64,000 bases of DNA from Clostridia bacterium (GTDB taxonomy: Bacteria > Bacillota > Clostridia > TANB77 > CAG-465). The notes beneath the pieces are model-generated. The model did not search any database. It had not been told where the DNA came from and saw nothing but the letters and a program-made list of their open reading frames with translations. The DNA lies in contig JAQSXK010000010.1 of assembly GCA_029256705.1 (NCBI GenBank), forward strand, positions 10,317-74,316, read 5' to 3'. Positions 18,110 through 44,195 of the stretch are shown piece after piece (the first letter of the stretch is position 1; every line of letters starts with the position of its first letter). The translations under genes and the position numbers were made by a program.

Positions 18110-18149
18110 TTTAAATAAAAAACTATTTTTAAAATAGGGGGAAACTTTG

Positions 18150-21674: not shown

Positions 21675-21767
21675 ATAATTTTAATTTGTGAAATAAAAAT
21701 TGTTTAATTGAAAAATATATATTGTGATATTAATTCAAATTTACTAAAAATATAGGAGGAAAATTGC

Positions 21768-24700
21768 ATGATAAACAAAAGAGAAGGGATATCTTTAATT
21801 GTACTTGTTATAACAATAATAATTGTTATTATACTTGCAGGAGGTGTCATTTTGACACTTTCTGCAAACAACCCAATAAGCAGCGCAAATGAAGCTGTAT
21901 TTAAGTCAGACTTAGATGCAATAGCTTCGGATTTAAATATGTATCAGAGTAGTCAATATTCTAAAGTTAAAGCATATAGTCCAGATAGACTAAATGCAAA
22001 TGATTTAACCGCAGAATATGATGGAACAGTTATTGAAAATAAAACAATAAAAGATATAATACCAGTTTTATCTAAAACAGATAAATACAATGGACAGTTT
22101 GAGATTATAAATGGTAAATTAGTATATTTAGGTACAAATAGAACGCAAAAAAGATGGGCCCAAGATGTTAATGTAGAAGTTATAGATGCAGATAGATTAG
22201 ATGCAATAATTTCTACAGCAACAACTTTGCCAATATCTGCGGGAACTGATGTTGTAGCAACAATAAAAATTTCATCTAATGCTAGTATAAATAATATAAA
22301 ATTGACTAACAATTTAGAATTGTTAGATAACAATAATATAGCAGTTGCAACTCAACCAGTATTTGAAATTGGCACACCAACTGGTACAGAGTTGGATACA
22401 TTAAGAACTGTAGAGGTAACAATAAAAACAGATGAACTTGCAGAGGGTATATATAAATTGAAACTTAAATCATATAGTATATCTAATATATATGATGTAA
22501 CAAATTCAAAGGATATAGTAGCAGGAGAATTATTTGAAATCGATAATACACCACCAGCAAATCCAGAAATGTCAGTCACTTCGACAGGATGGACTAATTC
22601 AGATGTGATTGTATCAGTAACATATCCATCAGATAGTGTAAAGAAAGAATACAGTTTAGATGGAACTACTTGGAACACATATACAGATTCAATAACAGTT
22701 AATACAAATAATACGACAATATATTCAAGAGCAATAGATATAGCTGGAAACCAAAGTGGGCAAAGTACAATGACTATTGTAAATATAGATAAAGAATCAC
22801 CAATTTCTTTATTTGGTACAAATGGAGGAAATAATCTACAAGTTGCTAGTACTAAAGTAACATTAACTGATGTAGGAGTAAGTGGATTAGATATAACCTC
22901 ATTAAAGTATATATGGGATGCACAAAATGTAGATGAACCAACAGGTGAGTGGACTACATTTGTAAACAATGAAATTATAAGTAAAGCAGATTCAAATGGA
23001 ACATATTACTTGTGGATAAAAGCTTTAGACAATGCAGGAAATAGCATAATAACAAAATCTAATGCATTTGTTGTAGATAATATAGTTCCAGAAAATCCAA
23101 CATTGACAGCAATACCAACAGCCTGGACAAATACAAATGTAACTGTAACAATAACATACCCTTCAGATGCTTTTGTTAAAGAATATAGCATAGACGGTAT
23201 AACTTGGAATGCATACACAGAGGTAGTATTAATAACTACAAATAATACAACAATTTATACAAGAGCAACAGATGCAAGTGGAAATCAAAGCGGACAGAGT
23301 ACATTAACTGTGGCAAATATAGATAAAATAATGCCAACAGCTACATATGTAACAAATGGAGGAATAGATTTACAAACAGCAAGTACAGTAGTAACAGCAA
23401 GTGATTTAGGTGGAAGTAATATAATATCATTAGAATATATTTGGGATACACAAAATAGTGTGACACCTATTAATGGTTGGACATCATTTACTAGTGGTAG
23501 TACGATTACAAAGTCTGGAATGACAGGAACATATTACTTATGGATAAAAGTAGTAGATAATGCAGGAAATATTCTAGTAACAAAATCTAATGCTTTTGTA
23601 GCAGATAATACACCACCAGCTAATCCAACAATATCAGCCTCACCAACAGCATGGACAAATGGAAATGTAACAGTAACAATAACATATCCAGCTGATGCAT
23701 CTGTAAAAGAATACAGTACAAATGGAACAACATGGAGTGTATATACAGCACCAGTCGTAATAATTACAAATAATACAACAGTTTATGCAAGAGCAGCAGA
23801 TATGAGCGGAAACCAAAGTGGGCAAAGTACAATAACTGTAGCAAATATAGATAAAATATTACCTACCGTAACATATGGTACAAACGGAGGAACAAATCTA
23901 AAAACAGCTAGCACAACAGTAATAGCTAATGATTTAGGTGGAAGTAATATTAGTTCATCAGAATATATTTGGGATACACAAAATAGTGTAACTCCTTCAT
24001 CTGGTTGGACAGTATTTACTAGTGGTAATACAATAACAAAATCTATGGTTACAGGATCATATTACTTATGGGTAAAAGTAGTAGATAATGCTGGTAACAA
24101 TTTTGTTACAAAATCTAATGTATTTGTATTAGATAATACGCCACCAATAAATCCAGCAATGTCAGCATCTCCTACAGGATGGACAAATGGAAATGTAACA
24201 ATAACAATCACATATCCAGTTGATATGTCTGTAAAAGAGTATAGTACAAATGGTACAACGTGGAGTGCATATACAGCGCCAGTTGTAGTAAGTACAAATA
24301 ATACAACAGTTTACGCAAGAGGTAGTGATGCGAGTGGAAATCAAAGTGGACAGAGTACAATAACTGTAACAAATATTGAAAGGATAGCCCCATCGGTACC
24401 TACAGTAAACTTTAATGGATATACTCCAGGTACATGGACTTCAGCAGCAATAACACTTAATTTATCTTCTACTGATGCTAACTCAGGAATAAATAAATAT
24501 CAATGGTCTAATAATGGAACAACATGGAATGATTTCCAAAGTTCTTGGATATACAATTATGATACAGCACAAACTCCTTGTTTTAGGTCAATAGATAATG
24601 CTGGTAATGTAAGTGCTGCAACTAGTTATTATAATATTTTAAGAGATGCAACTGCACCAACATATACAAGTTATAGTATAACTAATATTACAAGTGATAC

Positions 24701-25499
24701 TTATGATGTATTCGTATATGGTGTATCTGATGCAGGAAGTGGAGTAAATAGAGTACAATTTCCAAATTGGACTGCACTTAATGGTCAAGACGATATGGTA
24801 TCAAGTTTTGAAACAAATTCTACTATAACTGGACAAAACTTAGGTAGTGGAACTTGGAAATATACTGTAAAAAGATCTGATCATAATAATGAATATGGTG
24901 TTTATTTAACACATTTATATTTATATGATAATCTAGGAAATGTTGCAGGATTTGCATTAAACAATACAACTTTAGTTGATGCAAGTATAGTAGCAAAATT
25001 TACTTTAACTGCAGCACAAGAAATATTTAATGGTAGTACTTCATATTATACGGCTGGTGAAGTATCTAATAACTATACAATAGAATTTGATGCTCAGCCT
25101 TCAGATACAATAGATGTATTTTCAGAGAATAATACACTTATAGGTCATACAGGTTATAAACATAGATTTATTATTTTGGAATCACATGGAGGTGGAGTAC
25201 CTAATGCTGGCCTTGGTGTAGATTTAGGAACAAATGGTATAGTTTTGGTTGCACATAGTAACGGATATTATCATTCATTACTTACTTACTACTCTAACCT
25301 TAATGCATGGAATCATTATAAAATAGTAGTAGAAAATAAAATTCCAAGACTATATATAAATGGAGCACTTATTAAAACAGGTTATCCGCCACTATCTTCA
25401 TATACAAAATTGTATACATTATTTTCGATTGGAACAGGTGCATATGGTAATTATATAGGTAGAGCTAATAATTTTGTGTTTTATAATACTGTTAAATAA
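21768..25499 (+). CDS. giant paralog P2: pilin-like N-terminal module, 4 A and 3 B Ig-like units, a GBS Bsp-like repeat and a LamG-like C-terminal domain
   Basis: An AGGAGG SD precedes the start. The N-terminus is MINKREG-ISLIVLVITIIIVIILAGGVILTL. The Bsp-like motif is VQFPNWTALNGQDDMV...YLTHLYLYDNLGN. The C-terminal ~170 aa (…IPRLYINGALIKTG…) has the look of a concanavalin/LamG jelly roll. Confidence 0.88.
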   Translation: MINKREGISLIVLVITIIIVIILAGGVILTLSANNPISSANEAVFKSDLDAIASDLNMYQSSQYSKVKAYSPDRLNANDLTAEYDGTVIENKTIKDIIPVLSKTDKYNGQFEIINGKLVYLGTNRTQKRWAQDVNVEVIDADRLDAIISTATTLPISAGTDVVATIKISSNASINNIKLTNNLELLDNNNIAVATQPVFEIGTPTGTELDTLRTVEVTIKTDELAEGIYKLKLKSYSISNIYDVTNSKDIVAGELFEIDNTPPANPEMSVTSTGWTNSDVIVSVTYPSDSVKKEYSLDGTTWNTYTDSITVNTNNTTIYSRAIDIAGNQSGQSTMTIVNIDKESPISLFGTNGGNNLQVASTKVTLTDVGVSGLDITSLKYIWDAQNVDEPTGEWTTFVNNEIISKADSNGTYYLWIKALDNAGNSIITKSNAFVVDNIVPENPTLTAIPTAWTNTNVTVTITYPSDAFVKEYSIDGITWNAYTEVVLITTNNTTIYTRATDASGNQSGQSTLTVANIDKIMPTATYVTNGGIDLQTASTVVTASDLGGSNIISLEYIWDTQNSVTPINGWTSFTSGSTITKSGMTGTYYLWIKVVDNAGNILVTKSNAFVADNTPPANPTISASPTAWTNGNVTVTITYPADASVKEYSTNGTTWSVYTAPVVIITNNTTVYARAADMSGNQSGQSTITVANIDKILPTVTYGTNGGTNLKTASTTVIANDLGGSNISSSEYIWDTQNSVTPSSGWTVFTSGNTITKSMVTGSYYLWVKVVDNAGNNFVTKSNVFVLDNTPPINPAMSASPTGWTNGNVTITITYPVDMSVKEYSTNGTTWSAYTAPVVVSTNNTTVYARGSDASGNQSGQSTITVTNIERIAPSVPTVNFNGYTPGTWTSAAITLNLSSTDANSGINKYQWSNNGTTWNDFQSSWIYNYDTAQTPCFRSIDNAGNVSAATSYYNILRDATAPTYTSYSITNITSDTYDVFVYGVSDAGSGVNRVQFPNWTALNGQDDMVSSFETNSTITGQNLGSGTWKYTVKRSDHNNEYGVYLTHLYLYDNLGNVAGFALNNTTLVDASIVAKFTLTAAQEIFNGSTSYYTAGEVSNNYTIEFDAQPSDTIDVFSENNTLIGHTGYKHRFIILESHGGGVPNAGLGVDLGTNGIVLVAHSNGYYHSLLTYYSNLNAWNHYKIVVENKIPRLYINGALIKTGYPPLSSYTKLYTLFSIGTGAYGNYIGRANNFVFYNTVK

Positions 25500-25512
25500 T
25501 TTATATAAATAA

Positions 25513-25558
25513 AGAAAATAGTTGAAAAATTAAATAATTTAATTATCAACTATTTTCT
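25513..25558 (+). terminator. hairpin terminator after P2
   Basis: A perfect 13-bp stem (agaaaatagttga / tcaactattttct) with a 20-nt AT loop. Confidence 0.65.
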
Positions 25559-25589
25559 GTTAATTTTTAATATATAATTAAATAAACAC

Positions 25590-25618
25590 TTGATATTTCT
25601 TTTAATACATTATAAAAT
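25590..25618 (+). promoter_or_regulatory. candidate promoter of cassette 1 (156-aa gene plus P3); a duplicate lies at 30007-30035
   Basis: TTGATA, a 17-nt spacer, then TAAAAT. The same arrangement recurs in the duplicated upstream region. Confidence 0.5.
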
Positions 25619-25666
25619 ATAAACATGTAAAATGAATACATAAATAAATTTATAGGAGGATTTAAA

Positions 25667-26137
25667 ATGAATAATAAAGGTCAAAATCAGATTAGGTTAG
25701 TAATTTTAGGGGTTGTTCTTGTTATTGCAATAATAGTTGTTATTGTAGCTATTAATAAAAACAACGCAAATTCAGTGAATGATGGAAATAAAACGGATAA
25801 TACAAAAGTAAATTATACAGAAACAAATGATGGGACTAAGGTAAATACAAGCGAAGAAGTATCTCAAGATAAAAGCGTTAAAGGTGTATTATTAGAACAA
25901 AGTAAAATAGTATATACTAATGGAACATCTAAGTTAACATCAAAAGTAACAAATGATAGTATAGCAAAAGATAATTTAAGATTTAAAGTAAAATTTATAG
26001 CAAATGATGGAACTGTAATGGCAGAAGCTGTAGGATATGTAGGAAAAATAAAAGCGAATGAAACAAAATATATTGATTCATACATAACAATAGATACTTC
26101 TAATTCGAAAAATGTTACTTACGAAATAATGGAATAA
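25667..26137 (+). CDS. membrane-anchored small beta-sandwich protein (156 aa), copy 1
   Basis: An AGGAGG SD precedes the start. There is an N-terminal TM segment (LVILGVVLVIAIIVVIVAI), a low-complexity N/T/D linker and a ~90-aa beta-rich domain that resembles FxLYD/DUF4352-type domains. Confidence 0.75.
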   Translation: MNNKGQNQIRLVILGVVLVIAIIVVIVAINKNNANSVNDGNKTDNTKVNYTETNDGTKVNTSEEVSQDKSVKGVLLEQSKIVYTNGTSKLTSKVTNDSIAKDNLRFKVKFIANDGTVMAEAVGYVGKIKANETKYIDSYITIDTSNSKNVTYEIME

Positions 26138-26176
26138 TATTAAATTAGAAAGTAATAAATATTAAGAGGTGAAGTT

Positions 26177-29100
26177 GTGAATTATAAATATAACAAAATA
26201 GGTATTTCATTAATTGTATTAGTGATAACAATTATAGTAATAATAATACTTGCAGGAGCTGTTATTTTGACACTATCTGCAAATAATCCAATAAATAGTG
26301 CAAATGAGGCGGTATTTAAGTCAGATTTAGATGCAATTGAATCGGACTTGAGTTTGTACGTATCTAGTGAGTATGCAAATACTACTATGTTTAGTCCAGA
26401 TAATTTAAATGCAGATGATTTATCTGTAGAATATAATGGTACTGTTATTGTTGGCAAAACAATAAAAGATATAATACCTGCATTATCTACTACAAATAAA
26501 TATAATGGGCAATTCGAAGTGGTAAACGGAAAGTTAGTTTATGTAGGAACAGATAGAACAAAAAAAAGATGGGCTCAAGATGTTAATGTAGAAGTTATAG
26601 ATGCAGATAGATTAGATGCAATAATTTCTACAGCAACAACTTTACCAATATCTGCTGGAACAGATGTTGTGGCTACAATAAAAATTTCATCTAACGCTAG
26701 TATAAATAATATAAATTTAACGAGTAAACTAGAGTTATTAGATAAAAATAATGTGTTAGTTCCAGTTCAACCATTATTTGAAATTGGCACACCAACTGGG
26801 ACTGGCTTAGATACATTAAGAACTGTAGATGTAACAATAAAAACAGATACACTTACAGAAGGTATATATAAATTAAAATTGAAAGCGTATAGTATATCTA
26901 ATATATATGATGTGGTAATAGAAACTGATATAGTAACAAGTGAGTTATTTGAAATAGATAATACACCACCAACAAATCCAGAAATGTCAGTTACTCCAAC
27001 TGGATGGACTAATTTAGAGGTATTTGTGTCAATTACATACCCATCAGATAGTGTAGTAAAAGAATATAGTTTAGATGGAATAATATGGAATGTATATACA
27101 AATTCAATAACAGTTAATACAAACAGTACAACAATATATGCAAGATCAACAGATATAGCTGGAAACCAAAGTGGACAAAGTACAATAACTATTGCGAATA
27201 TAGATAGAGAATCACCAACAGTTGTATATGGAACTAATGGTGGAGATGATCTACAAGTGGCAAGTACTACAGTAATAGTAACTGATGTAGGGGTAAGCGG
27301 AGTAGATATGACATCATTGAATTATATTTGGGATACACAAAATACTGTAGAACCTGCTAATGGTTGGATAGTATTTGAAAATGGAAATAATATAACTAAA
27401 TCTGGAATTACAGGTACATATTATTTATGGATAAAGGCTACAGACAATACAGGGAATAGTGTAATAACTAAGTCTAATGCTTTTATAGCAGATAATACTG
27501 CTCCGGAAAATCCAGTTATGTCAGCTTCATATACAGGTTGGACAAACGGAAATGTAAATGTAACAATAACATATTCTTCTGATGCAGCATTAAAAGAATA
27601 TAGTACAGACGCTTCAACATGGAATACATACACAGCTCCAGTTGTAATAAGTACAAATAATACAACAGTATATGCAAGGGCAACAGATGCAAGCGGAAAC
27701 CAAAGTGATCAAAGTACAATGACTATAGCAAATATAGATAAAACATTACCAACAGTAACATTTAGCCCAAGTAATATCGCTATGACAAATAATGATGTTT
27801 CAATATCTGTAAGTGCAGTAGATGCTGGCGGAAGCAATATGAAAAAATGGAGATATAGATTAAGTAGTAATAATGGATCTACATATGGTGATTGGCAAGG
27901 TGTAAATACTGGATATAATCCAACTCAGACTTATACACTTGGTGCTGGTATAACAGTTCCAGTTCTTGTAGGTTTACCTATGAATTTAAAACAAAATCAA
28001 AAATATATGCTAGAATTTGATTATAGTTGCTTAAGCGGTACTAATATATTTAATGTAGATTTGTGGCCAGATGATTTACCAGAGGCACATATAAATGCTA
28101 CTACTGCTTTACAGCATTATATTTGGAATAATATAACTTCTAGTAGTATAAATATGAATACCGCAAATTTAAGAATTTTTAATGATATTATAAGACCAAA
28201 CCCAACAGATGTATATATAAATAATATTAATCTATATCCAAAAGAAACTCATAGTATATTATTAAATAGTACTGGTGATTGGAAAATACAAATAGAAGCA
28301 TATGACAATGCAAATAATAGTTCGATATTTACTTCAAATTTATTTAGTATAGATAAAATAGCACCAACAAATCCAACAATGGCAGCTTCACCTACAGGAT
28401 GGACAAATGGAAACGTAGCAGTTACAATAACATATCCAGGGGATTCTGTAATTAAACAATATAGTTTTGATACAATAACTTGGAATACATATACATCAAC
28501 TGTCACAGTATCTAATAATACAACAGTATATGCAAGAACTAGTGATGCTAGTGGAAACCAAAGTGGACAAAGTACACTAACAGTATCAAATATAGATAAA
28601 GTAGCGCCAACGGTAATAGCTACATATAAAAAAGCAGATACAACATCATACGTTTCAGATTCTTGGACTAATCAATCTGTAACTATTACAGCTGCAGGAA
28701 ATGATGGAAGTGGAAGTGGTGTAAATAGGTACCAAATTACATATGATGGATCAACATATTATGATTTACCAAACGGGACAGTTACACTAAGTACTACTGG
28801 AAGAACTGGGGTTTGGGTGAGAGCTATAGATAATGTAGAAAATATAGGGCCTAATTCATCAACATACTTGGTTGCAATAGATAAATTAGCCCCAACCGTT
28901 TCATATAGCACTAATGGAGCAACAAATGTGCAAGTAGCAAGTACTCAAATAACTGTAAATGATGCTGCTAGTTTAAGTGGATTAAATACATCTAGTTTAC
29001 AATATGTGTGGGATGTACAAAATGTAACTACTCCAACAGTTGGATGGGCAAATTTTACAAATGATTCTATTTTAACAAAATTAGGTGTAACTGGAATATA

Positions 29101-29887
29101 TTATTTATGGATTAAAGCGTCAGATAATGCAGGTAACATTGTTGTTTCAAAATCAAATTCATTTTCGATTGTTTCATATTATGCATTTAGTTATACTGGA
29201 AATTATCAAACTTGGACAGCACCTTCGACTGGTAAAATAAAAATTGAAACTTGGGGTGCTATGGGTGGAACACCTATGGGGGATAATTACTATTCGGGTA
29301 AAGGTGGATACGCGTCAGGTGAATTAAATGTTAATGCAGGAGATTTATTATATCTATATGTAGGTGCATATGGTATTAACGGTGGTTGGAACGGTGGCGG
29401 TAAAAATAGTTATCAAGGTGGAAATAACAATTTTACCGGTGGTGGAGCTTCAGATGTTAGAAAAAACGGTATGGCACTATCAAATAGAATAATAGTTGCA
29501 GGTGGCGGAGGAGCCAGCGGTGGATGGCAATCAAGAGGAGGAGATGGTGGAGGTCTGACTGGTAATAGTGGAACTTCAATATCAACTTATACAGGAAATA
29601 GATTTGGTACAGGTGGAACGCAAGCATCTGGTGGAACTGGAGGAACAAGTACTACTTATTCAAACGGTAATAACGGAATATTAGGAATAGGTGGAGATGC
29701 TTATGCTGCTTCTGGCGGCGGAGGCGGAGGCTATTATGGCGGCGGAGGCGGTACAGGAATCAATGCTGATGATGGTGGCGGCGGAGGCGGCTCATCATAT
29801 ATTGGAGGTGTTCTTAATGGAACAACTAGTATAGGTGCTAATACCGATTTTAATGGTAAAATTTCAATAACATATATAATACCATAA
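26177..29887 (+). CDS. giant paralog P3: pilin-like N-terminal module, Ig-like units and a glycine-rich C-terminal domain
   Basis: A GTG start follows aagaggtga. The N-terminus is VNYKYNKIG-ISLIVLVITIIVIIILAGAVILTL. The C-terminus reads YAFSYTGNYQTWTAPSTGKIKIETWGAMGG...GGGASDVRKNG.ALSNRIIVAGGGG... Confidence 0.88.
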   Translation: MNYKYNKIGISLIVLVITIIVIIILAGAVILTLSANNPINSANEAVFKSDLDAIESDLSLYVSSEYANTTMFSPDNLNADDLSVEYNGTVIVGKTIKDIIPALSTTNKYNGQFEVVNGKLVYVGTDRTKKRWAQDVNVEVIDADRLDAIISTATTLPISAGTDVVATIKISSNASINNINLTSKLELLDKNNVLVPVQPLFEIGTPTGTGLDTLRTVDVTIKTDTLTEGIYKLKLKAYSISNIYDVVIETDIVTSELFEIDNTPPTNPEMSVTPTGWTNLEVFVSITYPSDSVVKEYSLDGIIWNVYTNSITVNTNSTTIYARSTDIAGNQSGQSTITIANIDRESPTVVYGTNGGDDLQVASTTVIVTDVGVSGVDMTSLNYIWDTQNTVEPANGWIVFENGNNITKSGITGTYYLWIKATDNTGNSVITKSNAFIADNTAPENPVMSASYTGWTNGNVNVTITYSSDAALKEYSTDASTWNTYTAPVVISTNNTTVYARATDASGNQSDQSTMTIANIDKTLPTVTFSPSNIAMTNNDVSISVSAVDAGGSNMKKWRYRLSSNNGSTYGDWQGVNTGYNPTQTYTLGAGITVPVLVGLPMNLKQNQKYMLEFDYSCLSGTNIFNVDLWPDDLPEAHINATTALQHYIWNNITSSSINMNTANLRIFNDIIRPNPTDVYINNINLYPKETHSILLNSTGDWKIQIEAYDNANNSSIFTSNLFSIDKIAPTNPTMAASPTGWTNGNVAVTITYPGDSVIKQYSFDTITWNTYTSTVTVSNNTTVYARTSDASGNQSGQSTLTVSNIDKVAPTVIATYKKADTTSYVSDSWTNQSVTITAAGNDGSGSGVNRYQITYDGSTYYDLPNGTVTLSTTGRTGVWVRAIDNVENIGPNSSTYLVAIDKLAPTVSYSTNGATNVQVASTQITVNDAASLSGLNTSSLQYVWDVQNVTTPTVGWANFTNDSILTKLGVTGIYYLWIKASDNAGNIVVSKSNSFSIVSYYAFSYTGNYQTWTAPSTGKIKIETWGAMGGTPMGDNYYSGKGGYASGELNVNAGDLLYLYVGAYGINGGWNGGGKNSYQGGNNNFTGGGASDVRKNGMALSNRIIVAGGGGASGGWQSRGGDGGGLTGNSGTSISTYTGNRFGTGGTQASGGTGGTSTTYSNGNNGILGIGGDAYAASGGGGGGYYGGGGGTGINADDGGGGGGSSYIGGVLNGTTSIGANTDFNGKISITYIIP

Positions 29888-29904
29888 TTATTAAGCGATT
29901 TTAT

Positions 29905-29943
29905 AGTAGAAAAAATTATATTTAATAATATATTTTTTCTACT
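29905..29943 (+). terminator. hairpin after P3
   Basis: A perfect 12-bp stem (agtagaaaaaat / attttttctact). The downstream T tail is weak. Confidence 0.45.
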
Positions 29944-30084
29944 TAGTTATATGTTTAAGTTTCTATATTATTTTTTAATATATTTAGCACTAAATTGAAT
30001 AAACACTTGATATTTTTTTTAATACATTGTAAAATATAAACGTGTAAAATGAATACATAAATAAATTTATAGGAGGATTTAAAA

Positions 30085-30555
30085 ATGAGTAATAAAGGTC
30101 AAAATCAAATGAGGTTAGTAATTTTAGGAGTTGTTCTTGTTATTGCAATAATAGTTGTTATTGTAGCTATTAATAAAAACAATGCAAATTCAGTGAATGA
30201 AGGAAATAAAACAGATAATACAAAAGTAAATTACACAGAAACAAATGATGGAACTAAGGTAAATACAAGTGAAGAAGTATCTCAAGATAAAAATGTTAAA
30301 GGTGTGCTATTAGAACAAAGTAAAATAGTATATACAAATGGAACATCTAAGTTAACATCTAAGGTAACAAACGATAGTACAGCAAAAGATAATTTAAGAT
30401 TTAAAGTAAAATTTATAGCAAATGATGGAACTGTAATGGCAGAAGCTGTAGGATATGTAGGAAAAATAAAAGCAAATGAAACAAAATATATTGATTCATA
30501 CATAACAATAGATACTTCTAATTCAAAAAATGTTACTTATGAAATAATGGAGTAG
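30085..30555 (+). CDS. membrane-anchored small beta-sandwich protein (156 aa), copy 2
   Basis: It differs from copy 1 at 5 of 156 residues (N2S, I9M, D39E, S69N, I98T). The SD and upstream leader are the same. Confidence 0.75.
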   Translation: MSNKGQNQMRLVILGVVLVIAIIVVIVAINKNNANSVNEGNKTDNTKVNYTETNDGTKVNTSEEVSQDKNVKGVLLEQSKIVYTNGTSKLTSKVTNDSTAKDNLRFKVKFIANDGTVMAEAVGYVGKIKANETKYIDSYITIDTSNSKNVTYEIME

Positions 30556-30586
30556 TCAATCAAAATGAACTTTAAGAGGTGAAGTT

Positions 30587-33500
30587 GTGAATTACAAATA
30601 TAATAAAATAGGTATATCATTAATAGTATTGGTTATAACAATAATAGTTATTGTTATTCTTGCAGGTGCTGTTATTTTAACATTATCTGCAAATAATCCA
30701 ATAAATAGTGCGAATGAGTCGGTATTTAAGTCAGATTTAGATGCAATTGAATCGGACTTAAGTTTGTATGTAGCTAGTGAGTATGCAAATACTACTTCGT
30801 TTAGTCCAGATAGTCTAAATGCAGACGATTTATCTGTAGATTATAATGGTAATGTTATTGTAGGTAAAACAATAAAAGATATAATACCTGCATTATCTAC
30901 TACAAATAAATATAATGGGCAATTTGAAGTGGTAAACGGAAAATTAGTTTATGTAGGAACAGATAGAACAAAAAAAAGATGGGCACAGGAAACTAATGTG
31001 GATGTTATAGATGCAGATAGATTAGATGCAATAATTTCTACAACAACAACTTTGCCAATATCTGCAGGAACAGATGTTGTAACTACAATAAAAATTTCAT
31101 CTAATGCTAGTATAAATAATATAAATTTAACAAGTAAACTAGAGTTATTAGATAAAAATAATGTATCAGTTACAGTTCAACCATTATTTGAAATTGGCAG
31201 TCCAACTGGAACTGGGTTAGATACATTAAGAACTGTAGAAGTGACAATAAAAACAGATGGGCTCGCAGAAGGTATATATAAATTAAAATTGAAACCATAT
31301 AGCATATCTAATATATATGATGTAACAAACTCAATAGATATAATTAGTAGTGAATTATTTGAAATAGATAATACGCCACCAACAAATCCAGAAATGTCAT
31401 CTACTCCAACAGGATGGACAGATTTAGATGTTTCAATATCCATAACATATCCATTAGATAGTGTAACAAAAGAATATAGTTTAGATGGTACATCATGGAA
31501 TGTATATACAAATCCAATAACAGTTAATACAAATAATACAACAATATATGCAAGAGCGATAGATATAGCTGGAAATCAAAGTGGACAAAGTACAATAACT
31601 ATTGCAAATATAGATAGAGAATCACCAACAGTTATATTCGGTACAAATGGGGGAAATAATCTACAAGTTGCTAGTACTAAAGTAACAGTAACTGATGTAG
31701 GTGTAAGTAATGTAGATATAACTTCATTAAAGTATATATGGGATACACAAAATGTAGATGAACCAACAGGTCAGTGGAATACATTTGTAAATGGTGAAGT
31801 AATAAATAAAGTAGATTCTAATGGCACATATTATTTATGGATAAAAGCATTAGATAATACAGGAAATAGTGTAACAACTAAATCTAACGCATTTGCTGTA
31901 GATAATATAATTCCTGTAAATCCAACAATGTCAGCAAGTCCTACAGGATGGACAAATGGAAATGTAACAGTAACAATTACATATTCAGCTGATGCAGTTG
32001 TTAAAGAATATAGTACAGATACTTTAACATGGAGTGCATATATAGCACCAGTTGTGATTAGTACAAATAATACAACAGTATATGCAAGAGCTAGTGATGC
32101 TAGTGGAAATCAAAGTGAGCAAAGTACTATGACTGTAGCAAATATAGATAAAGTAATACCAGTAATAACTGCTGAAAATGATGGCTCAACAACATCAAGT
32201 ATAACAGTCAAAGCAACTGCGTCGGATTTAGGTGGAAGTGCACTTAATAACGGTTCATACCAATATTCAAAGGATAATGGTGTTACATGGACGGCACTTA
32301 CTAATGTAACAAGTTATACATTTAGTTCACTAACAACAGGAGCATATCAATGTAAAGTAAAGGTATTGGATAACGCAGGTAACAGTGCTATATCTAATAC
32401 ATTAGGAATATCAACAGTAGCTGTTGGAACGATAACAATGTCAGCAAGTCCAACAACTTGGACAAATGGCAATGTAACTGTAACTATAGCATATCCAGCA
32501 GAAGTTGTAACAAAACAATATAGTTTGAATGGTACAACATGGTCTACATATACATCAGCAGTAATAGTTACAACAAATGGAACATTATATGCTAGGGGAT
32601 ATGATGCAGGAAATAATCAAACAACGCAGGCAACAATAACAATAGCTAATATAGATAAAACGTTACCAGTAGTTTCAAACTCTGTAAGTGGAGGTATGAT
32701 ATTTACAGATCAAAAGTTTCAAAATGGAATAAATAATACTTATGTATATAATAATCTTGGTAATGGTACAGTAACTAATACACGTATTGCAATGGCAGAT
32801 TCACCTACAGGTTCTGGATATGGATTGGAAGTAAGAACAACAGGAACACCATCTCCAGGATGGGGAGGATTCTATTTTGCAAATATGGCATCTGCAAATA
32901 AGGTGTTTATTACGAAAATTATAGCAAGTATACCAGTAGGATATACAATAAATTGGGCTTCAAATGCATTTGGTGATGGTGGTACAATCACATGGTTAAC
33001 ATCTCAAGATGGAACAGGAACTTGGCAAGAATATGTATGTAAAGTTACTTGTGGTCCAACAGGAGCATTTAGTTCAACTAACTTTTATTACTTAACTGGA
33101 GGAGCAACACCAACATCATCCAATCCTTTAGTTTGGAGAGTTGCATACGCAACAGTATTTGATACAACATTATGGAAAACAACAAGTAATGCTATAGTGA
33201 GTGCAACAGATACATCTGGAATAGTAGGATATGGAATAAACCAAAGTAGTGTAACTGCACCTACATTTACAAATATAAGTGCAAGAGTAAACTTTGCAAC
33301 AGTATTTGAAAATATTACTGTAAATGGAACATACTACGTATGGCTAAAAGATCAAGCTGGTAATGTAACAAATACTTCAATTTTAGTAAATTATATTGAT
33401 AATATTGTACCAACTGTAACATATGGAACAAATGGTGGTACAGTAGTAACAGCAAGTACAACTGTTACAATAAATGATACAGGTGGAAGTAATTTAAATA

Positions 33501-34525
33501 CAAGTACATTACAATATGTATGGGATATACAAAATGTAACAACACCAGTATCAGGATGGAATACATTTACCAATGGAACAACAATAACTAATTCTGGTAC
33601 AGGAACTTATTATTTGTGGATAAAAGGATCAGATAATGCAGGAAACAATGTAATTACAAAATCTAATGCTTTTGTAACAGTACCTTCAGTAAACCAGACA
33701 TTTGGTTATAATGGAAGTTATCAAACATGGACAGTACCTTATACTGGAACATATAAACTTGAAGTTTGGGGAGCACAAGGCGGAAACAATTGGAATATTG
33801 TTGGTGGTCTAGGTGCATATAGTAGTGGAAATATAAATTTAACTGCTGGAACTATTCTTTATGTATATGTTGGTGGCCAAAATGGTTATAATGGTGGAGG
33901 AACTGCTGGAACAGGAAGTGCTTGTGAAAATGGTGCAAACGGTGGTGGAGCAACTGACATAAGACTTTCTGGAACGGCTCTTGCTAATAGAATCATAGTA
34001 GCTGGCGGCGGAGGCGGTGCTAGTGGAGGTGGCTCAGGACATTACCAAAATGCTACAGGATATAATGGTGCTTATGGTGGTGGCGGAAGTGGAATTGGTA
34101 TAGGAGCACCTGCTTTATATCACGGTGCCGGAGGATCTGCAGGAGGAACAGGTGCAGGAAATGGAGGATCTGCTTCAGGTGGAGATATAACTAGTATGTC
34201 AACATATGCAAAAGGATACAACGGAGGAAATGGATCACTAGGTCAAGGTGGATCTGGTGGAGGAGTATATGGAGATAGATTAGATTACTATGGCCCAGGC
34301 TCTGGCGGCGGAGGCGGAGGCGGCTACTACGGTGGTGGTGGCGGCGGCGGCGGTGCCGGCTGGTGGGGTTCTAACGGTGGTGCTGGTGGTGGCGGTTCTT
34401 GCTATATTGGTGGTGTAACATCAGGTCAAACAATAGCTGGAAATGCTACAATGCCAGGTACAGCTGGTGGTTCAATAGTTGGAAATAGTGGTAATGGTTA
34501 TGTTAAAATAACTAATGCACCATAA
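30587..34525 (+). CDS. giant paralog P4: pilin-like N-terminal module, Ig-like units, a jelly-roll-like module shared with P1 and an expanded glycine-rich C-terminal domain
   Basis: The GTG start and SD match those of P3. The N-terminal ~500 aa are closely similar to P3. The internal block NSVSGGMIFTDQKF...VWRVAYATVFD parallels P1 ETFSGGAIYDDPTF...VWTVAYANVFD. The C-terminal domain contains G7 and G8 runs. Confidence 0.88.
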   Translation: MNYKYNKIGISLIVLVITIIVIVILAGAVILTLSANNPINSANESVFKSDLDAIESDLSLYVASEYANTTSFSPDSLNADDLSVDYNGNVIVGKTIKDIIPALSTTNKYNGQFEVVNGKLVYVGTDRTKKRWAQETNVDVIDADRLDAIISTTTTLPISAGTDVVTTIKISSNASINNINLTSKLELLDKNNVSVTVQPLFEIGSPTGTGLDTLRTVEVTIKTDGLAEGIYKLKLKPYSISNIYDVTNSIDIISSELFEIDNTPPTNPEMSSTPTGWTDLDVSISITYPLDSVTKEYSLDGTSWNVYTNPITVNTNNTTIYARAIDIAGNQSGQSTITIANIDRESPTVIFGTNGGNNLQVASTKVTVTDVGVSNVDITSLKYIWDTQNVDEPTGQWNTFVNGEVINKVDSNGTYYLWIKALDNTGNSVTTKSNAFAVDNIIPVNPTMSASPTGWTNGNVTVTITYSADAVVKEYSTDTLTWSAYIAPVVISTNNTTVYARASDASGNQSEQSTMTVANIDKVIPVITAENDGSTTSSITVKATASDLGGSALNNGSYQYSKDNGVTWTALTNVTSYTFSSLTTGAYQCKVKVLDNAGNSAISNTLGISTVAVGTITMSASPTTWTNGNVTVTIAYPAEVVTKQYSLNGTTWSTYTSAVIVTTNGTLYARGYDAGNNQTTQATITIANIDKTLPVVSNSVSGGMIFTDQKFQNGINNTYVYNNLGNGTVTNTRIAMADSPTGSGYGLEVRTTGTPSPGWGGFYFANMASANKVFITKIIASIPVGYTINWASNAFGDGGTITWLTSQDGTGTWQEYVCKVTCGPTGAFSSTNFYYLTGGATPTSSNPLVWRVAYATVFDTTLWKTTSNAIVSATDTSGIVGYGINQSSVTAPTFTNISARVNFATVFENITVNGTYYVWLKDQAGNVTNTSILVNYIDNIVPTVTYGTNGGTVVTASTTVTINDTGGSNLNTSTLQYVWDIQNVTTPVSGWNTFTNGTTITNSGTGTYYLWIKGSDNAGNNVITKSNAFVTVPSVNQTFGYNGSYQTWTVPYTGTYKLEVWGAQGGNNWNIVGGLGAYSSGNINLTAGTILYVYVGGQNGYNGGGTAGTGSACENGANGGGATDIRLSGTALANRIIVAGGGGGASGGGSGHYQNATGYNGAYGGGGSGIGIGAPALYHGAGGSAGGTGAGNGGSASGGDITSMSTYAKGYNGGNGSLGQGGSGGGVYGDRLDYYGPGSGGGGGGGYYGGGGGGGGAGWWGSNGGAGGGGSCYIGGVTSGQTIAGNATMPGTAGGSIVGNSGNGYVKITNAP

Positions 34526-41164: not shown

Positions 41165-41304
41165 TAAATTTAAGATTCAAGGCAATACTTGAGTCTTTTT
41201 TTGCTCAAAAAAACATAAATTTTACACAAATGACATATTACGACATTTTTTTGCTTTTCATTATGTTATAATTTGCTAAATTATAATAGAAAGGGGAAAA
41301 AACT

Positions 41305-41556
41305 ATGGATAAATTGAAAATTTTACAAAAAGAATTAGATGAGATGGTAGAGGAAAATAAACCTTATGATGAAATAGTTAAAAAGAGTAAAGAACTGGAT
41401 TATTATATAACAAAAGAAATGATTAAAATGCACAAAAATGCATTAAATGATCGAAGACGGAGTATCGAATATTTAACGGTTACTCTGTTTTTGCTTTTTT
41501 TTAATATATATCTATGCAATTATTGGAAAAATATAGAAAAATATACAAAAAAATAG
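41305..41556 (+). CDS. Spo0E-family sporulation regulatory protein (aspartyl-phosphate phosphatase-like)
   Basis: The N-terminal ~45 aa (LKILQKELDEMVEENKPYDEIVKKSKELDYYITKEM) fit the Spo0E helix-hairpin family. The ORF tail reads through a terminator-like hairpin at about 41455-41500. Confidence 0.55.
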   Translation: MDKLKILQKELDEMVEENKPYDEIVKKSKELDYYITKEMIKMHKNALNDRRRSIEYLTVTLFLLFFNIYLCNYWKNIEKYTKK

Positions 41557-41563
41557 TGAATTA

Positions 41564-41592
41564 TTGACTATAATTATATTATATGGTAAAAT
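41564..41592 (+). promoter_or_regulatory. promoter of the fifth paralog (P5)
   Basis: TTGACT (41564-41569), a 17-nt spacer with a TG extension, then TAAAAT (41587-41592). Confidence 0.6.
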
Positions 41593-41702
41593 TTAGTAAA
41601 TTATGTGTTCTGATTATATTTATAAAATAAGATTTGTACTGCTATTAATGTTATAGTCAGATATAGTTTATTTATAAAATATATATTAGGAGGTAAAAAT
41701 GT

Positions 41703-44195
41703 ATGGAATATCTTAGTGGAAGAAAAGGTATATCTTTAATAAGTTTAGTTATAATTATTGTAATTATGATTATATTAGCAGGAGCAGTTATTTTGACATT
41801 ATCAAATAACAATGCAATTAATAAAGCAACAGAAGCAGTTTTTAAAAGTATATTAAAAGATTATGAAAGTGAATTAACCATGTGGTTTTCAAATGAATAT
41901 TTAGAAACTAATGGATTACTAAATGTAACTACTGTTAATGCTACAAAGGATAGTGGCACGTATATAAAAGGCGGAAACACACTTAAATTAAAAGACATAA
42001 TAACAAGTGTAAAGAAAGAACATGAAAGCTTACTAGAAATAAAAAAAGGAAGACTTATATATACTGGAACAGATGAAAAACAAAAAGAATGGATGAATCA
42101 AATTGGAATATCTTTAGATATAACAACTGAAACTGGTGCAATACCTGTAGATATAGTAGCGGGGTGGACATTTACTGCTGCTTTAATGAGCGACGGAACA
42201 GTTAAAACATGGGGAAGTAATGGATATGGACAATTAGGTGATGGAACACTGATGAATAGAAGTTTGCCCACAACCATTTCTGGTTTAGAAAATGTAGTTC
42301 AAATAGCTGCAGGTGATGAATATATGCTAGCATTGTTAAATGATGGAACTGTAAAAGCATGGGGAAGTAACTGGGCAGGACAACTTGGTAACGGAACAAC
42401 AGAAGATAAAAGTATACCTACAATTGTAACTGGATTAACAAATGTAAGTAAAATAGCGGCAGGTCAATATCTTTCACTTGCAATATTAAATGATGGAACA
42501 GTTAAGGGATGGGGATATAATGAATTTGGTCAACTAGGTGATGGTACATTGCAAAATAAAAGTGTACCTACAACAGTAACAGGACTTACTAATGTAAAAC
42601 AATTAGCATCAGGATATGATCATACACTTGCATTATTAAATGATGGAACAGTAAAAGCTTGGGGTTGTAATAATTACGGAAAATTAGGAGATGGTACTAC
42701 AAATGATACTACATCTCCAATAACAATTTCTGGTTTAAATAATGTTACACAAATTTCTGCAGGATACTATCACTCTGTAGCTTTACTAAGTGATGGAACA
42801 ATAAAGACATGGGGAAGTAACTGGGCAGGACAACTTGGTAACGGATCAAATACTGATGTACATGTACCAACCCTTGTATCAGGATTAACTGGAGTAAAAC
42901 AAATTTGTAAAAATTATGATCATACCGCTGTAATTATGAATGATGGAACAATAAAAATATGGGGCTACAATGAGTATGGACAATTAGCTAATGGAACAAC
43001 AATAGACAGTAATGTACCAATTACAATAACAAACACACTAAATGTAAAACAAATTGCAATTGGTGGTAATCATACGGTAGCTATTTTAGCTGATGGAACA
43101 ATAAAATCATGGGGTAACAATGATCATGGTCAATTAGGTGATGGAAAAACTTCTAATTATTACTTACCTAAAATATTAGAAGGCTTAACAAATGTAAAAC
43201 AAGTATCCGCGGGATGGATGCACTCAGCTTTCCTATTAAATGATGGTACAGTTAAAATAATGGGAGATAACGAATATGGACAAATAGGTGATGGTACGAA
43301 TATAGACAGTAACGTTCCAGTATCGGTTTTGGGTTTAAATAATGTAAACCAAATTACATCAGGAGATAATTTTATGTTAGCATTATTAAACGATGGGACA
43401 GTAAAAGCTTGGGGAGATAATATGTTCGGCCAGTTAGGTACTGGAACAACAATAGATAGTAATGTTCCAGTAACAATATCTGGACTTACAAACGTAGTAC
43501 AAATAGCTTCAGGTGAATATCATGCAGCAGCTTTGCTAAATGATGGAACTGTAAAGATATGGGGAGCTAATTGGGCAGGAGAATTAGGAAATGGAACTAA
43601 AACAAATAGTAAAGTTCCAATAATAGTACCTGGACTTACAAATGTAAAAGAATTAGCACTAGGATATGATTATACTTTAGCATTACTAAATGATGGAACA
43701 GTAAAAGCTTGGGGTTGTAATAAATACGGTCAATTAGGAGACGCAACCAATACTGATAGCACTGTGCCAGTAACTGTGCCAGGACTTACAAATGTAAAAC
43801 AATTAGTATCTGGATATGAACATGTATTAGCATTATTAAATGATGGAACAGTGAAATCTTGGGGAAGTAACTGGGCAGGACAACTTGGAGATGGTACAAT
43901 AACAGACAGTAATATACCTGTAGTAGTATCTGCGGTATATAATGTAAAAGAGCTGTGTAAAGAGTATGATCATACATTAGTATTATTAAACGATGGAACA
44001 GTGAAATCTTGGGGATATAATGAATTTGGGCAGTTAGGTAACGGAACAAATGAAAATAATTATTATCCAACTATTATATCTGGACTGTCTAACGTAAAAC
44101 AAGTAACAACAGGTGGTGATCATTCATTGGCACTACTAAATGATGGAACTGTAAAAGTATGGGGTAGCAATAGTCAAGGTCAAATAGGAAATTAA
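41703..44195 (+). CDS. paralog P5: pilin-like N-terminal module fused to 14 RCC1-type beta-propeller blades
   Basis: An AGGAGG SD lies 9 nt upstream. The N-terminus is MEYLSGRKG-ISLISLVIIIVIMIILAGAVILTL, followed by a head homologous to those of P1-P4 (NKATEAVFKS...LIYTGTDEKQKEWM). I counted 14 DGT[VI]K.[WM]G..(.)GQLG repeats. Confidence 0.88.
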   Translation: MEYLSGRKGISLISLVIIIVIMIILAGAVILTLSNNNAINKATEAVFKSILKDYESELTMWFSNEYLETNGLLNVTTVNATKDSGTYIKGGNTLKLKDIITSVKKEHESLLEIKKGRLIYTGTDEKQKEWMNQIGISLDITTETGAIPVDIVAGWTFTAALMSDGTVKTWGSNGYGQLGDGTLMNRSLPTTISGLENVVQIAAGDEYMLALLNDGTVKAWGSNWAGQLGNGTTEDKSIPTIVTGLTNVSKIAAGQYLSLAILNDGTVKGWGYNEFGQLGDGTLQNKSVPTTVTGLTNVKQLASGYDHTLALLNDGTVKAWGCNNYGKLGDGTTNDTTSPITISGLNNVTQISAGYYHSVALLSDGTIKTWGSNWAGQLGNGSNTDVHVPTLVSGLTGVKQICKNYDHTAVIMNDGTIKIWGYNEYGQLANGTTIDSNVPITITNTLNVKQIAIGGNHTVAILADGTIKSWGNNDHGQLGDGKTSNYYLPKILEGLTNVKQVSAGWMHSAFLLNDGTVKIMGDNEYGQIGDGTNIDSNVPVSVLGLNNVNQITSGDNFMLALLNDGTVKAWGDNMFGQLGTGTTIDSNVPVTISGLTNVVQIASGEYHAAALLNDGTVKIWGANWAGELGNGTKTNSKVPIIVPGLTNVKELALGYDYTLALLNDGTVKAWGCNKYGQLGDATNTDSTVPVTVPGLTNVKQLVSGYEHVLALLNDGTVKSWGSNWAGQLGDGTITDSNIPVVVSAVYNVKELCKEYDHTLVLLNDGTVKSWGYNEFGQLGNGTNENNYYPTIISGLSNVKQVTTGGDHSLALLNDGTVKVWGSNSQGQIGN
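42140..44192 (+). repeat. about 150-nt periodic coding repeats (14 RCC1 blades)
   Basis: The repeating ~50-aa units are visible in both the protein and the DNA (…aatgatggaacagtaaaagcttgggg… recurs). Confidence 0.85.

Follow-up and report, generated by a model that had tools for sequence, protein, structure and literature searches.

The P5 gene and its surroundings

The gene P5 lies on the forward strand of the window, i.e. the whole stretch of 64,000 nucleotides that was analysed. The coding sequence and its upstream signals are the following:

41564..41592, + strand: promoter-like site of the sigma-70 type, TTGACT-17 nt-TAAAAT, with a TG before the -10 hexamer
41688..41694, + strand: ribosome-binding site AGGAGGT, with the GGAGG core 9 nt before the ATG, as read from the sequence
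41703..44195, + strand: P5 coding sequence, 830 aa plus stop, ATG start, for a protein predicted to be pilin-like and modular, with two RCC1 propellers

The promoter-like site shows 10 of 12 consensus matches, with the TG present, and both hexamers and the spacer are unchanged in locus L003 of a related MAG (a strain about 95% identical overall). Promoter-like sites around P5, in an AT-rich region, were in no excess over shuffled sequence (17 versus 22 +/- 4), and the site is thus a good consensus match rather than functional proof. To this extent, the original prediction that P5 has a promoter of its own at these positions is maintained.

P5 had also been described as standing apart from the main block, and housekeeping and ars genes do intervene: the interval contains a PBP1-type gene, lexA, a flavoprotein gene, arsR, arsD, arsA, a rubrerythrin-like gene and a Spo0E-like ORF. 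P5 and most paralogues of its N-terminal region (the head, described below) are surrounded by housekeeping genes and remote from pilus operons. Genes joining the head to RCC1 repeats showed no synteny across genomes, their neighbours being different in loci L001, L012/L013 and L014.

In MAG OH_SBrB_108, the orthologue has the same length (830 aa) and is 95.2% identical to P5. Length and reading frame are kept between the two genes, in which 97 codons differ synonymously and 40 non-synonymously, a pattern that indicates purifying selection; as judged from this comparison, P5 is a functional gene. The possibility that the distal propeller evolves faster between strains was dropped, as the differences lacked significance (Fisher p=0.095 and p=0.43).

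RCC1 repeats and predicted beta-propellers

The encoded protein was divided into the following predicted modules:

41703..42119, + strand: pilin-type head module, residues 1-139, composed of a long alpha1 helix and a small beta/alpha subdomain, with homology to P1-P4
42120..42143, + strand: linker between head and propeller 1, residues 140-147, with pLDDT <50 at 140-144
42144..43175, + strand: RCC1 beta-propeller 1, residues 148-491, seven four-stranded blades with 28 strands (AF2)
43185..44192, + strand: RCC1 beta-propeller 2, residues 495-830, seven blades with 27 strands (AF2)

The assignment of the repeats to RCC1 was confirmed by Pfam, where PF00415 (RCC1; E=5.7e-154, 13 stretches, 501 bits against a cut-off of 21.7), PF13540 (RCC1_2; E=1.4e-135, 14 stretches, 439 bits, cut-off 22) and PF25390 (RCC1-like domain; E=8.9e-255, 845 bits, cut-off 150) all exceeded their gathering thresholds. 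RCC1-type families are returned exclusively, in agreement with the proposed lack of Ig-like cassettes. Fourteen DGT[VI]K motifs follow each other with an exact 50-aa period, from residue 164 to residue 814; the repeats are 13 full ones and a terminal piece of 23 residues, so that the earlier count of 14 is right when the partial repeat is included.

The fold was predicted by using AlphaFold (AF2) on a combined alignment (A4), for which sequence sets were chosen with MAFFT so that head and repeat regions both align; the single-sequence run gave a pLDDT of 36. The resulting model has a mean pLDDT of 91.3, exceeding 90 in most parts of the two propellers, and low confidence is confined to residues 1-7, 140-144 and 492-494. 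It contains 55 strands in the repeat region, with a break at residues 492-494. When the model was compared with known structures by Foldseek, UVR8 gave a target-normalised TM of 0.88-0.92 (rmsd 1.5-1.7 A) and the RCC1-like domains of HERC1, HERC2 and RPGR 0.79-0.84, while the RCC1 domain was also among the matches; single RCC1-like domains of seven blades, taken from the PDB, can be superposed almost fully on the model. The break and the UVR8 match support, at the level of the model, the anticipated folding of the repeats into two closed 7-bladed propellers. Identity between blades of P5 peaks at offset 7 (60%, versus 50-58%), and blades 5 and 12 both have an unusual C-K-[NE]-Y-D-H ending. Propeller 2 probably arose, on this sequence evidence, by duplication of a 7-blade unit.

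A search for bacterial proteins with at least 13 RCC1 blades produced 7,515 matches (E<=1e-10), of which the top 120 mostly span the whole 680-aa repeat region. Among these best 120 full-length matches, the head is carried by P0265, P0273 and P0330 only, and P0338 has a canonical N_methyl pilin motif.

The head and its family

Residues 1 to about 140 of P5 are 41-44% identical to the heads of the four large upstream paralogues P1-P4 (ORFs at 18147, 21768, 26177 and 30587), with E values from 1.5e-17 to 5e-21. The proposed homology, which an insignificant alignment score would have contradicted, is still detected at E=3e-12 to 3e-15 when the hydrophobic segment is taken out, and the similarity therefore exceeds that of a shared membrane helix.

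An exhaustive HMM search at E<=1e-10 recovered 1,297 cluster representatives (50% identity clusters) carrying the head, with lengths between 131 and over 1,200 aa. The payloads of the best 81 representatives belong to 31 or more different Pfam families. RCC1 repeats are the payload in 7 of the top 150, as well as in P0265, P0273 and P0330; lectin-like domains, Ig-like domains, LRR, CBM, F5/8 type C and PF12810 are among the others. The idea of a portable module is well borne out by these figures. The source organism has at least 7 head paralogues, 6-7 consecutive copies occur in each of the loci L001 and L007, and paralogue payloads reach about 1,300 aa.

The P5 head alone gave no match in a word-index search, which was a sensitivity artefact, as the exhaustive HMM search found the large family. 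One candidate, P0042 (3,313 aa, 24 'head' stretches), was discarded, being a cadherin-like repeat protein that matches the IVNGQVVY motif only. Scanning a genome collection with patterns back-translated from the head alignment, which were too specific, matched the source-related MAG alone. No paper on the motif GISLIVL / KGISLI was retrieved from the literature.

Comparison of the head with type IV pilins

The N-terminal end of the head contains two predicted segments:

41703..41729, + strand: predicted leader MEYLSGRKG, residues 1-9, with its last residue, a Gly, aligned to Gly-1 of type IV prepilins
41730..41801, + strand: hydrophobic alpha1-N, ISLISLVIIIVIMIILAGAVILTL, residues 10-33, with no Glu at +5

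Class III signals are defined by about 21 hydrophobic residues behind a short hydrophilic leader whose last residue is Gly (PMC4471445). P5 has this layout, with its short hydrophilic leader, final Gly and hydrophobic residues 10-33; the median leader length in the head family is 7 residues. The alpha1-N consensus, ISLIVLVITIIVIIILAGAVILSL, is near-invariant across 256 family members, which is more easily reconciled with recognition by a common machinery than with a generic membrane anchor. At position +5, the same 256 members have V in 212 cases, I in 19, T in 15, A in 4 and E in none. P5 has a Ser there, and its mature N-terminus is devoid of both Phe1 and the Glu5 expected of a pilin. Glu5 is 'almost invariable' in bacteria and often missing in archaea, and Glu5 mutants of classical bacterial pilins do not homopolymerise (PMC4471445).

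A head profile built from 59 sequences was searched against the PDB. Type IV pilins or pseudopilins account for all eight of the best matches, with Gly-1 in register; they include Geobacter PilA-N (E=1.6e-5 and 2e-4), S. sanguinis PilE1 (E=0.0025), PilA, GspG and MshA. Neither Pfam (even at E<=10) nor NCBIfam scans placed a pilin-motif family on the P5 head, the reference model for pilin cleavage and methylation being PF07963, with TIGR02532 (NCBIfam) and IPR012902 (InterPro) as its equivalents. Since a control minor pilin of canonical appearance (SKSG/VFLIE...) was likewise missed by Pfam, this negative result carries little weight.

In the AF2 model, residues 12-68 of the head form the alpha1 helix (about 57 residues, with a kink at 36-37), followed by a small subdomain at about 75-133; pLDDT is 87-97 over residues 11-130, except for the 31-40 block (77). 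The pilin 'lollipop' fold has an alpha1 of about 50 residues, with its C-terminal half packed on an antiparallel beta-sheet. Beyond alpha1, the model of the head has only one clear hairpin (111-120), a few tiny strands and short helices, and a four-stranded beta-meander was not clearly predicted in this small globular part.

Proteins matching the N-terminal part of the head only were examined in their context, and 3 out of 3 lie in full type IV pilus operons, in loci of related uncultured Clostridia (L006, L010 and L011). Each operon includes a PilM/N-like gene, tandem pilins, minor pilins, PilB (MshEN+T2SSE), PilT and PilC (T2SSF). The tandem pilins, 1-4 per operon and 130-162 aa long, start with KKGISLIVLVITIIVIIILAGAVILSL, and the N-terminal motif KG/ISLIVLVITIIVIIILAGAVIL is identical in P5 and in these short pilins of all three operons. 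They match the head HMM over leader and alpha1 with E values from 1e-24 to 1e-28, profile positions from about 3 to 70 being common to the head and to the operon-encoded pilins; these also lack Glu5, so that, in this lineage, its absence is no argument against filament assembly. PilB/C/D-like machinery was found neither in the 64-kb window nor in three stretches of the related MAG (L003-L005).

The original prediction of a pilin-like head agrees with the PDB matches, all pilins at the top, and with the motif found on the operon pilins of relatives. As far as sequence comparison can tell, the head of P5 is a type IV pilin module.

Proposed function and alternative explanations

On balance, P5 is probably a modular type IV pilin-like protein, made of a pilin head, a flexible linker and two RCC1 propellers, and displayed on a pilus. 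The head would comprise a short basic leader up to the Gly, a hydrophobic alpha1-N of about 24 residues, the rest of the alpha1 of about 57 residues and a globular subdomain of about 70 residues. The alpha1-N would insert P5 into the membrane, a prepilin peptidase may cut the leader after Gly9, and the pilin module would be taken up, and presumably polymerised, by the type IV pilus machinery of the lineage. Given the bulky payload, the tip or the start of the filament would be the most likely position of P5. The propellers would be displayed at the surface, held off the cell as a ligand-binding module of the adhesin type. Counted against the pilus model were the many paralogues per genome, for all of which tip seats are not obvious, the absence of PilB/C/D-like genes from the window and the three related stretches, and the missing Phe1 and Glu5, together with the small subdomain without a clear beta-meander.

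It is possible, but rather unlikely, that the pilin-like N-terminus does no more than anchor or sort the protein, the propellers reaching the surface from the membrane or from a pseudopilus-like stub, as in a bindosome and with no filament. The location of P5 and most head paralogues among housekeeping genes, off the pilus operons, would fit such an arrangement, as would the number of paralogues per genome, the size of their payloads (up to about 1,300 aa) and the lack of the residue needed for homopolymerisation in classical bacterial pilins. However, modular pilins with genes away from pilus operons are known, the whole alpha1, beyond the membrane segment, is common to the head and the operon-encoded pilins, and the near-invariance of alpha1-N suggests packing constraints. 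A precedent for the anchor does exist in the bindosome of Sulfolobus solfataricus, in which sugar-binding proteins carry class III signal peptides and need a type IV filament-like system for their surface localisation; a filament has never been observed (PMC4471445). The bindosome and the P5 family both combine many different binding proteins with a common pilin-type signal devoid of Glu5, but the former is archaeal, carries solute-binding cargo and has no conserved pilin head of about 140 aa.

Much less can be said for P5 being an ordinary Sec-dependent secreted protein or type II membrane protein, with a pilin resemblance due to convergence in hydrophobic composition. The lack of matches to pilin-motif HMMs and the modest PDB matches (best E=1.6e-5), which rest largely on the hydrophobic helix, would be expected in that case, which we regard as very unlikely: unlike a class I signal peptide, the hydrophobic stretch of about 24 residues is not followed by a small-x-small motif, the homology runs on through alpha1-C, and neither the register of the Gly in eight pilin matches out of eight nor the motif shared with the pilins of three operons would be explained. 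Even less probable, to the point of being hardly credible, is an intracellular role of the RCC1 domains as a guanine-nucleotide exchange factor or enzyme-like module, instead of an extracellular binder. Such roles are those of eukaryotic RCC1 and of the RCC1-repeat effectors of Legionella, and nothing but fold similarity to the RCC1, HERC2 and RPGR domains speaks for them in P5. UVR8, the best structural match, is no exchange factor, the pilin-type signal and the positive-inside leader put the propellers outside the membrane, and the other payloads found on the head are typical extracellular binding modules.

Relation to known modular pilins and propeller proteins

Provided that its head counts as a pilin module, P5 is a modular pilin in the sense of Raynaud et al. 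2021, who defined the term (PMC8179133). In the Streptococcus sanguinis proteins PilB (pilin plus vWA) and PilC (pilin plus lectin) (PMC8179133; PMC9934059), as in P5, a short linker connects a small pilin module at the N-terminus with a bulky module that folds independently and is not pilus-specific; such proteins are expected to display a binding module, the filament tip being the probable place. The P5 host, too, is probably a monoderm Firmicute, and sporulation genes in the loci of relatives suggest an endospore-former. Unlike the S. sanguinis proteins, P5 has a head without Phe1, Glu5 or a Pfam/NCBIfam pilin-motif match and a payload of two propellers (680 aa), its gene has no link to a pilus operon, and its paralogous family is very large.

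A parallel in payload is PilX2 of the Saccharibacteria TM7x, a pilin with a C-terminal RCC1 propeller, a non-canonical signal and no prediction as a PilD substrate; its deletion lowers host binding from about 10.6% to about 4.6% of host cells, and it was proposed as a type IV pilus adhesin (PMC11623550). A pilin-type N-terminus and a C-terminal beta-propeller of RCC1 repeats are common to both proteins, whereas PilX2, from a Patescibacterium, has one heptabladed propeller and a gene inside the pilus locus, and P5 has two propellers, another pilin module and no linked pilus genes. In Gram-negative type IV pili, PilY1/PilC are beta-propeller adhesins at the tip, following a 'carrier plus effector' logic (PMC8179133). 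P5 would share with them the display of a propeller as adhesin and the modular logic, its own tip position being a proposal; PilY1, however, is no pilin but docks onto a minor-pilin complex, and its propeller, which is non-RCC1, is the carrier (IPR008707).

The repeat family and the predicted 7-bladed fold are also shared with UVR8, HERC2, RPGR and RCC1 of eukaryotes, and with the bacterial multi-RCC1 proteins (COG5184, 'alpha-tubulin suppressor-like RCC1 family'). The identity of the P5 repeat region to its bacterial relatives is typically 32-55%; most bacterial multi-RCC1 proteins have Sec signals or other N-terminal domains, not a pilin module.

The architecture, which had been called unusual, is less so than supposed: RCC1 repeats recur on the head, multi-RCC1 proteins are numerous (the 7,515 matches above), and pilin-RCC1 proteins have been published (PMC8179133, PMC11623550). 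Dataset S1 of Raynaud et al. 2021 already contains IPR012902-RCC1 and IPR012902-PF12810 architectures (PMC8179133), the PF12810 payload being also present in the head family of the window. With the concept already published, P5 differs by its Glu5-less, motif-negative head, its two propellers and a gene lying away from any pilus operon. As the census relied on the IPR012902 signature, the P5 head family was probably missed there, and proteins of this family would be undercounted by it.

Significance

The annotation of P5 may be improved from 'hypothetical protein' to pilin-anchored double RCC1 propeller, probably an adhesin, on the strength of its sequence. As a tentative and somewhat doubtful extension, a lineage of uncultured low-GC spore-forming Clostridia may use Glu5-less pilins (ISLIVLVITIIV...), which the Pfam and NCBIfam motif models missed here, and may have evolved from this basis a dedicated carrier head of about 140 aa, bearing dozens of different payloads per genome, as a general means of surface display. 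If true, the head would be a carrier pilin module comparable to sortase or S-layer-homology anchoring, with binding or enzymatic payloads, and P5 would be one cargo among others. If the operon pilins are major subunits, a bacterial type IV pilus would polymerise without the Glu5 salt bridge, and the head family offers a natural test of the need for Glu5 in bacterial pilus assembly. Should the reading hold, a large share of the surface proteins of these poorly known Clostridia would be carried by a pilin module that the Pfam and NCBIfam motif models missed here, in at least 1,297 clusters (50% identity).

P5 and its genomic context

The reading frame originally predicted to encode a further head-bearing protein is real, and the observation was confirmed overall. 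The features around it are as follows.

41703..44195, forward strand: P5 open reading frame, 830 aa
9 nt upstream of the P5 ATG: ribosome-binding site AGGAGGT
41564-41592: promoter-like site, TTGACT-17-TAAAAT with TG upstream, a near-consensus match
Upstream of P5: PBP1-type gene, lexA, arsR, arsD, arsA, rubrerythrin-like gene, Spo0E-like ORF
Downstream of P5: methyltransferase gene, FAD-dependent protein gene

The neighbours of P5 are housekeeping genes, and no PilB/C/D-like genes were found within the 64-kb window or in three stretches of the related MAG OH_SBrB_108. The site at 41564-41592 is a candidate consensus match, plausible but unproven as the P5 promoter, because promoter-like matches in this AT-rich region show no excess over shuffled sequence; its hexamers and spacer are unchanged in the related strain.

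The window (GC ~27%) shows ~95-96% nucleotide identity to contig JAEWPS010000018.1 ('MAG: Bacillota bacterium isolate OH_SBrB_108'). The P5 orthologue of this MAG is also 830 aa long and 95.2% identical, and the two genes differ by 97 synonymous and 40 non-synonymous codons, which points to purifying selection. Between the two strains, a suspected faster divergence of the distal propeller was not significant.

A small ORF (41305-41556, 83 aa) lies just upstream of P5 and bears a weak Spo0E-like likeness (PF09388, E=0.0055). Since an inverted repeat followed by a T-run, read from the sequence and unreported by the terminator scan, falls inside its 3' end, the true protein may be shorter. A terminator-like hairpin with a T-tail is located at 41172-41197, 3' of the rubrerythrin-like gene, consistent with transcription of P5 and the small ORF apart from the ars and rubrerythrin genes.

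RCC1 repeats and predicted fold

Outside the head, only RCC1-type families were recognized by Pfam (PF00415, E=5.7e-154, 13 stretches; PF13540, 14 stretches; PF25390, E=8.9e-255), and the scan of P5 detected no Ig-like cassettes, both as anticipated. The 14 repeats counted previously were recovered as 14 DGT[VI]K motifs, spaced by an exact 50-aa period between residues 164 and 814, the last repeat being a 23-residue piece.

AlphaFold gave a pLDDT of 36 from the single sequence, and a mean of 91.3 with an alignment spanning both head and repeats. Confidence is low only at residues 1-7 (leader), 140-144 and 492-494, so that the model divides into three units.

Units of the P5 AlphaFold model
Residues 12-133: head unit
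Residues 148-491: propeller 1, 28 strands
Residues 495-830: propeller 2, 27 strands

The repeats are accordingly predicted to form two seven-bladed propellers, with 14 four-stranded blades in all, matching the two that had been proposed. By Foldseek, the best PDB match was UVR8 (target-normalised TM 0.88-0.92, rmsd 1.5-1.7 A), followed by HERC2, HERC1, RPGR and RCC1 domains, all single 7-bladed RCC1-like domains superposed nearly in full on the model. With a pTM of 0.53, the mutual orientation of the head and the two propellers is not fixed by the model. Identity between blades peaks at offset 7 (60%, vs 50-58%), and blades 5 and 12 have in common an odd C-K-[NE]-Y-D-H ending; together, these suggest duplication of a 7-blade unit.

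The head family

Residues 1-~140 of P5 were aligned to the N-termini of the four large upstream paralogues P1-P4 (ORFs at 18147, 21768, 26177 and 30587) with 41-44% identity (E=1.5e-17 to 5e-21), and the similarity persisted without the hydrophobic segment (E=3e-12 to 3e-15); the homology claimed for the head is therefore significant.

Head profiles, built from 5 and then from 59 sequences, were compared with the full set of PDB sequences, and every one of the best matches was a type IV pilin or pseudopilin: Geobacter PilA-N (E=1.6e-5 and 2e-4), S. sanguinis PilE1 (E=0.0025), PilA, a fimbrial protein, GspG and MshA. In these alignments the last leader residue of the head, a Gly, is in register with the prepilin cleavage Gly. 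The pilin-motif models of Pfam and NCBIfam did not match the head, the Pfam model being insensitive as run, as it also missed its control.

An exhaustive HMM search collected 6,201 cluster representatives at E<=1e-3, of which 1,297 reached E<=1e-10 and 83 reached E<=1e-30; their lengths range from 131 to over 1,200 aa. Few of them have a named source. For most of these it is an uncultured 'Clostridia bacterium' assembly, with the protein annotated as hypothetical; one partial sequence bears the label Myroides sp., and one JGI entry is named 'pseudopilin PulG'. Among 256 members the N-terminal motif is strikingly uniform, [KR]-G | I-S-L-I-V-L-V-I-T-I-I-V-I-I-I-L-A-G-A-V-I-L-S-L-x-x-N-N-P-I, and the leader has a median length of 7 residues. 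At position +5 of the mature head, 250 members have V, I, T or A, and none of the 256 has Glu.

In the AlphaFold2 model of the P5 head, alpha1 spans residues 12-68 and is kinked at 36-37, the place of an N-N-P in most members, consistent with a pilin 'stick'. Only a single hairpin is clear in the small globular part, so that the head is a candidate for the complete pilin fold.

The window contains five head paralogues, and a second contig of MAG OH_SBrB_108 (L005) adds two; in other genomes, arrays of six and seven occur at loci L001 and L007. At 18147-34525 the window carries four large paralogues, vs two in the syntenic stretch (L004) of the ~95% identical MAG, reflecting either strain-level copy-number variation or repeat collapse in the assembly. 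Near-identical 156-aa single-pass membrane proteins (25667-26137 and 30085-30555) directly precede P3 and P4. Homologues 57-61% identical occur on two unrelated metagenome contigs (L001 16502-16999 and L014 12164-12637), there preceding large Ig-like head proteins. The arrangement suggests a partner gene conserved with the Ig-type paralogues; P5 lacks one.

Type IV pilus operons in relatives

Three family members matching only the N-terminal part of the head were chosen for inspection of their context, and all three (loci L006, L010 and L011) sit within complete type IV pilus operons, the strongest evidence for the pilin nature of the head. Each operon includes PilB (MshEN+T2SSE), PilT (T2SSE), PilC (T2SSF), a PilM/N-like gene, small membrane proteins, further minor pilins, and one to four tandem pilins of 130-162 aa, starting KKGISLIVLVITIIVIIILAGAVILSL.

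Tandem short pilins with Val at +5
L006 10001-10843
L010 8699-10393
L011 10001-10489

The head HMM aligns with these operon pilins (E=1e-24 to 1e-28) at profile positions ~3-70, i.e. the leader and the whole alpha1, and with head-only proteins encoded outside operons, such as P0153 (143 aa), at positions 3-141. The two extents argue that the head is a specific pilin-module subfamily, having alpha1 in common with the operon pilins of the lineage and a ~70-aa globular part of its own. The tandem pilins are presumably the major subunits, and they lack Glu5. Among type IV pili of bacteria this is unusual, since mutants in Glu5 are unable to homopolymerise (PMC4471445).

In two of the three operons (L006 11041-11853, L011 11317-12120) a minor pilin of the canonical Glu5 type (KKSG|VFVSE...) is fused in one ORF to PF06750, the N-terminal domain of prepilin peptidases, which includes a Cys-rich zinc motif; the catalytic A24 domain (PF01478) was not detected within these operons. 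The third encodes the same minor pilin as a separate 146-aa ORF (L010 10896-11336).

Payloads carried by the head

Pfam analysis of the 81 best head-bearing representatives revealed at least 31 payload families, which gives good support to the proposal that the head is portable.

Main payload families among the 81 best head representatives
ALK_LTK glycine-rich domain: 10
Y_Y_Y: 7
GBS_Bsp-like: 6
CHB_HEX_C: 6
RCC1: 5
Laminin_G_3: 5
Bact_surface_Ig-like: 4

GLUG, BspA-type LRR, cadherin-like, F5/8 type C, CBM_4_9, GH113 and more were also present. The commonest payload, PF12810 (ALK/LTK-type glycine-rich), ends large paralogues such as P4 (E=1.6e-10; C-terminal ~260 aa of 30587-34525) and the database protein P0001 (E=8.6e-26).

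RCC1 is a recurrent payload and no one-off, being attached to 7 of the 150 best head proteins. Three database proteins (P0330, P0265 and P0273) are full-length relatives with 7 or 16 repeats; in the closest, P0330 (978 aa, Clostridia MAG), a single propeller precedes other sequence. No synteny of head-RCC1 genes was found between genomes. Long RCC1 arrays, of at least 13-14 blades, are plentiful among bacterial proteins at large, with 7,515 matches at E<=1e-10, and most of the 120 best span the whole repeat region. One of the matched proteins, P0338, joins a canonical pilin N-terminus (RTG|FTLIELLIV, PF07963) to RCC1 repeats.

Discussion

The architecture of P5 is established: its N-terminal module is of pilin type and is joined by a flexible linker to two predicted RCC1 propellers. 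P5 would enter the membrane via alpha1-N, prepilin peptidase would cut the leader after Gly9, and the pilin module would be taken up by a type IV pilus machinery. The bulk of the payload makes the filament tip the probable place of P5, a position proposed for modular pilins (PMC8179133), and the propellers would serve as a ligand-binding module. We consider this pilus-borne arrangement fairly probable. The main rival is that P5 is anchored at the surface without polymerisation, by analogy with the Sulfolobus bindosome (PMC4471445); it is favoured by the number of paralogues and by their location outside pilus operons, and is considered the less probable of the two.

Modular pilins were defined by Raynaud et al. 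2021, with over 1,200 proteins, in 264 architectures, carrying the N-terminal IPR012902 motif; their Dataset S1 includes IPR012902-IPR000408/PF13540 (RCC1) and IPR012902-PF12810 (PMC8179133). In Saccharibacteria TM7x, the pilin PilX2 has a non-canonical signal peptide and carries a heptabladed RCC1 propeller, and deletion of PilX2 approximately halves host binding (PMC11623550). The design principle of P5 is thus published, so that the 'unusual' architecture of the original interpretation does not stand. That interpretation is supported in part; its portable head is upheld. Compared with these proteins, P5 differs in a pilin module without Phe1 and Glu5, the latter 'almost invariable' in bacteria (PMC4471445), in a double propeller as payload, in a head missed by pilin-motif models (Pfam, insensitive as run, and NCBIfam), and in a very large carrier family. 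No mention of the head N-terminal motif was found in the literature, and the carrier family is undescribed as far as the searches show. Judged by its sequence, P5 is a modular pilin on a non-canonical pilin module. In itself it is a useful gain in annotation; the wider lead concerns a candidate class of Glu5-less pilins, which may be used as general carriers.
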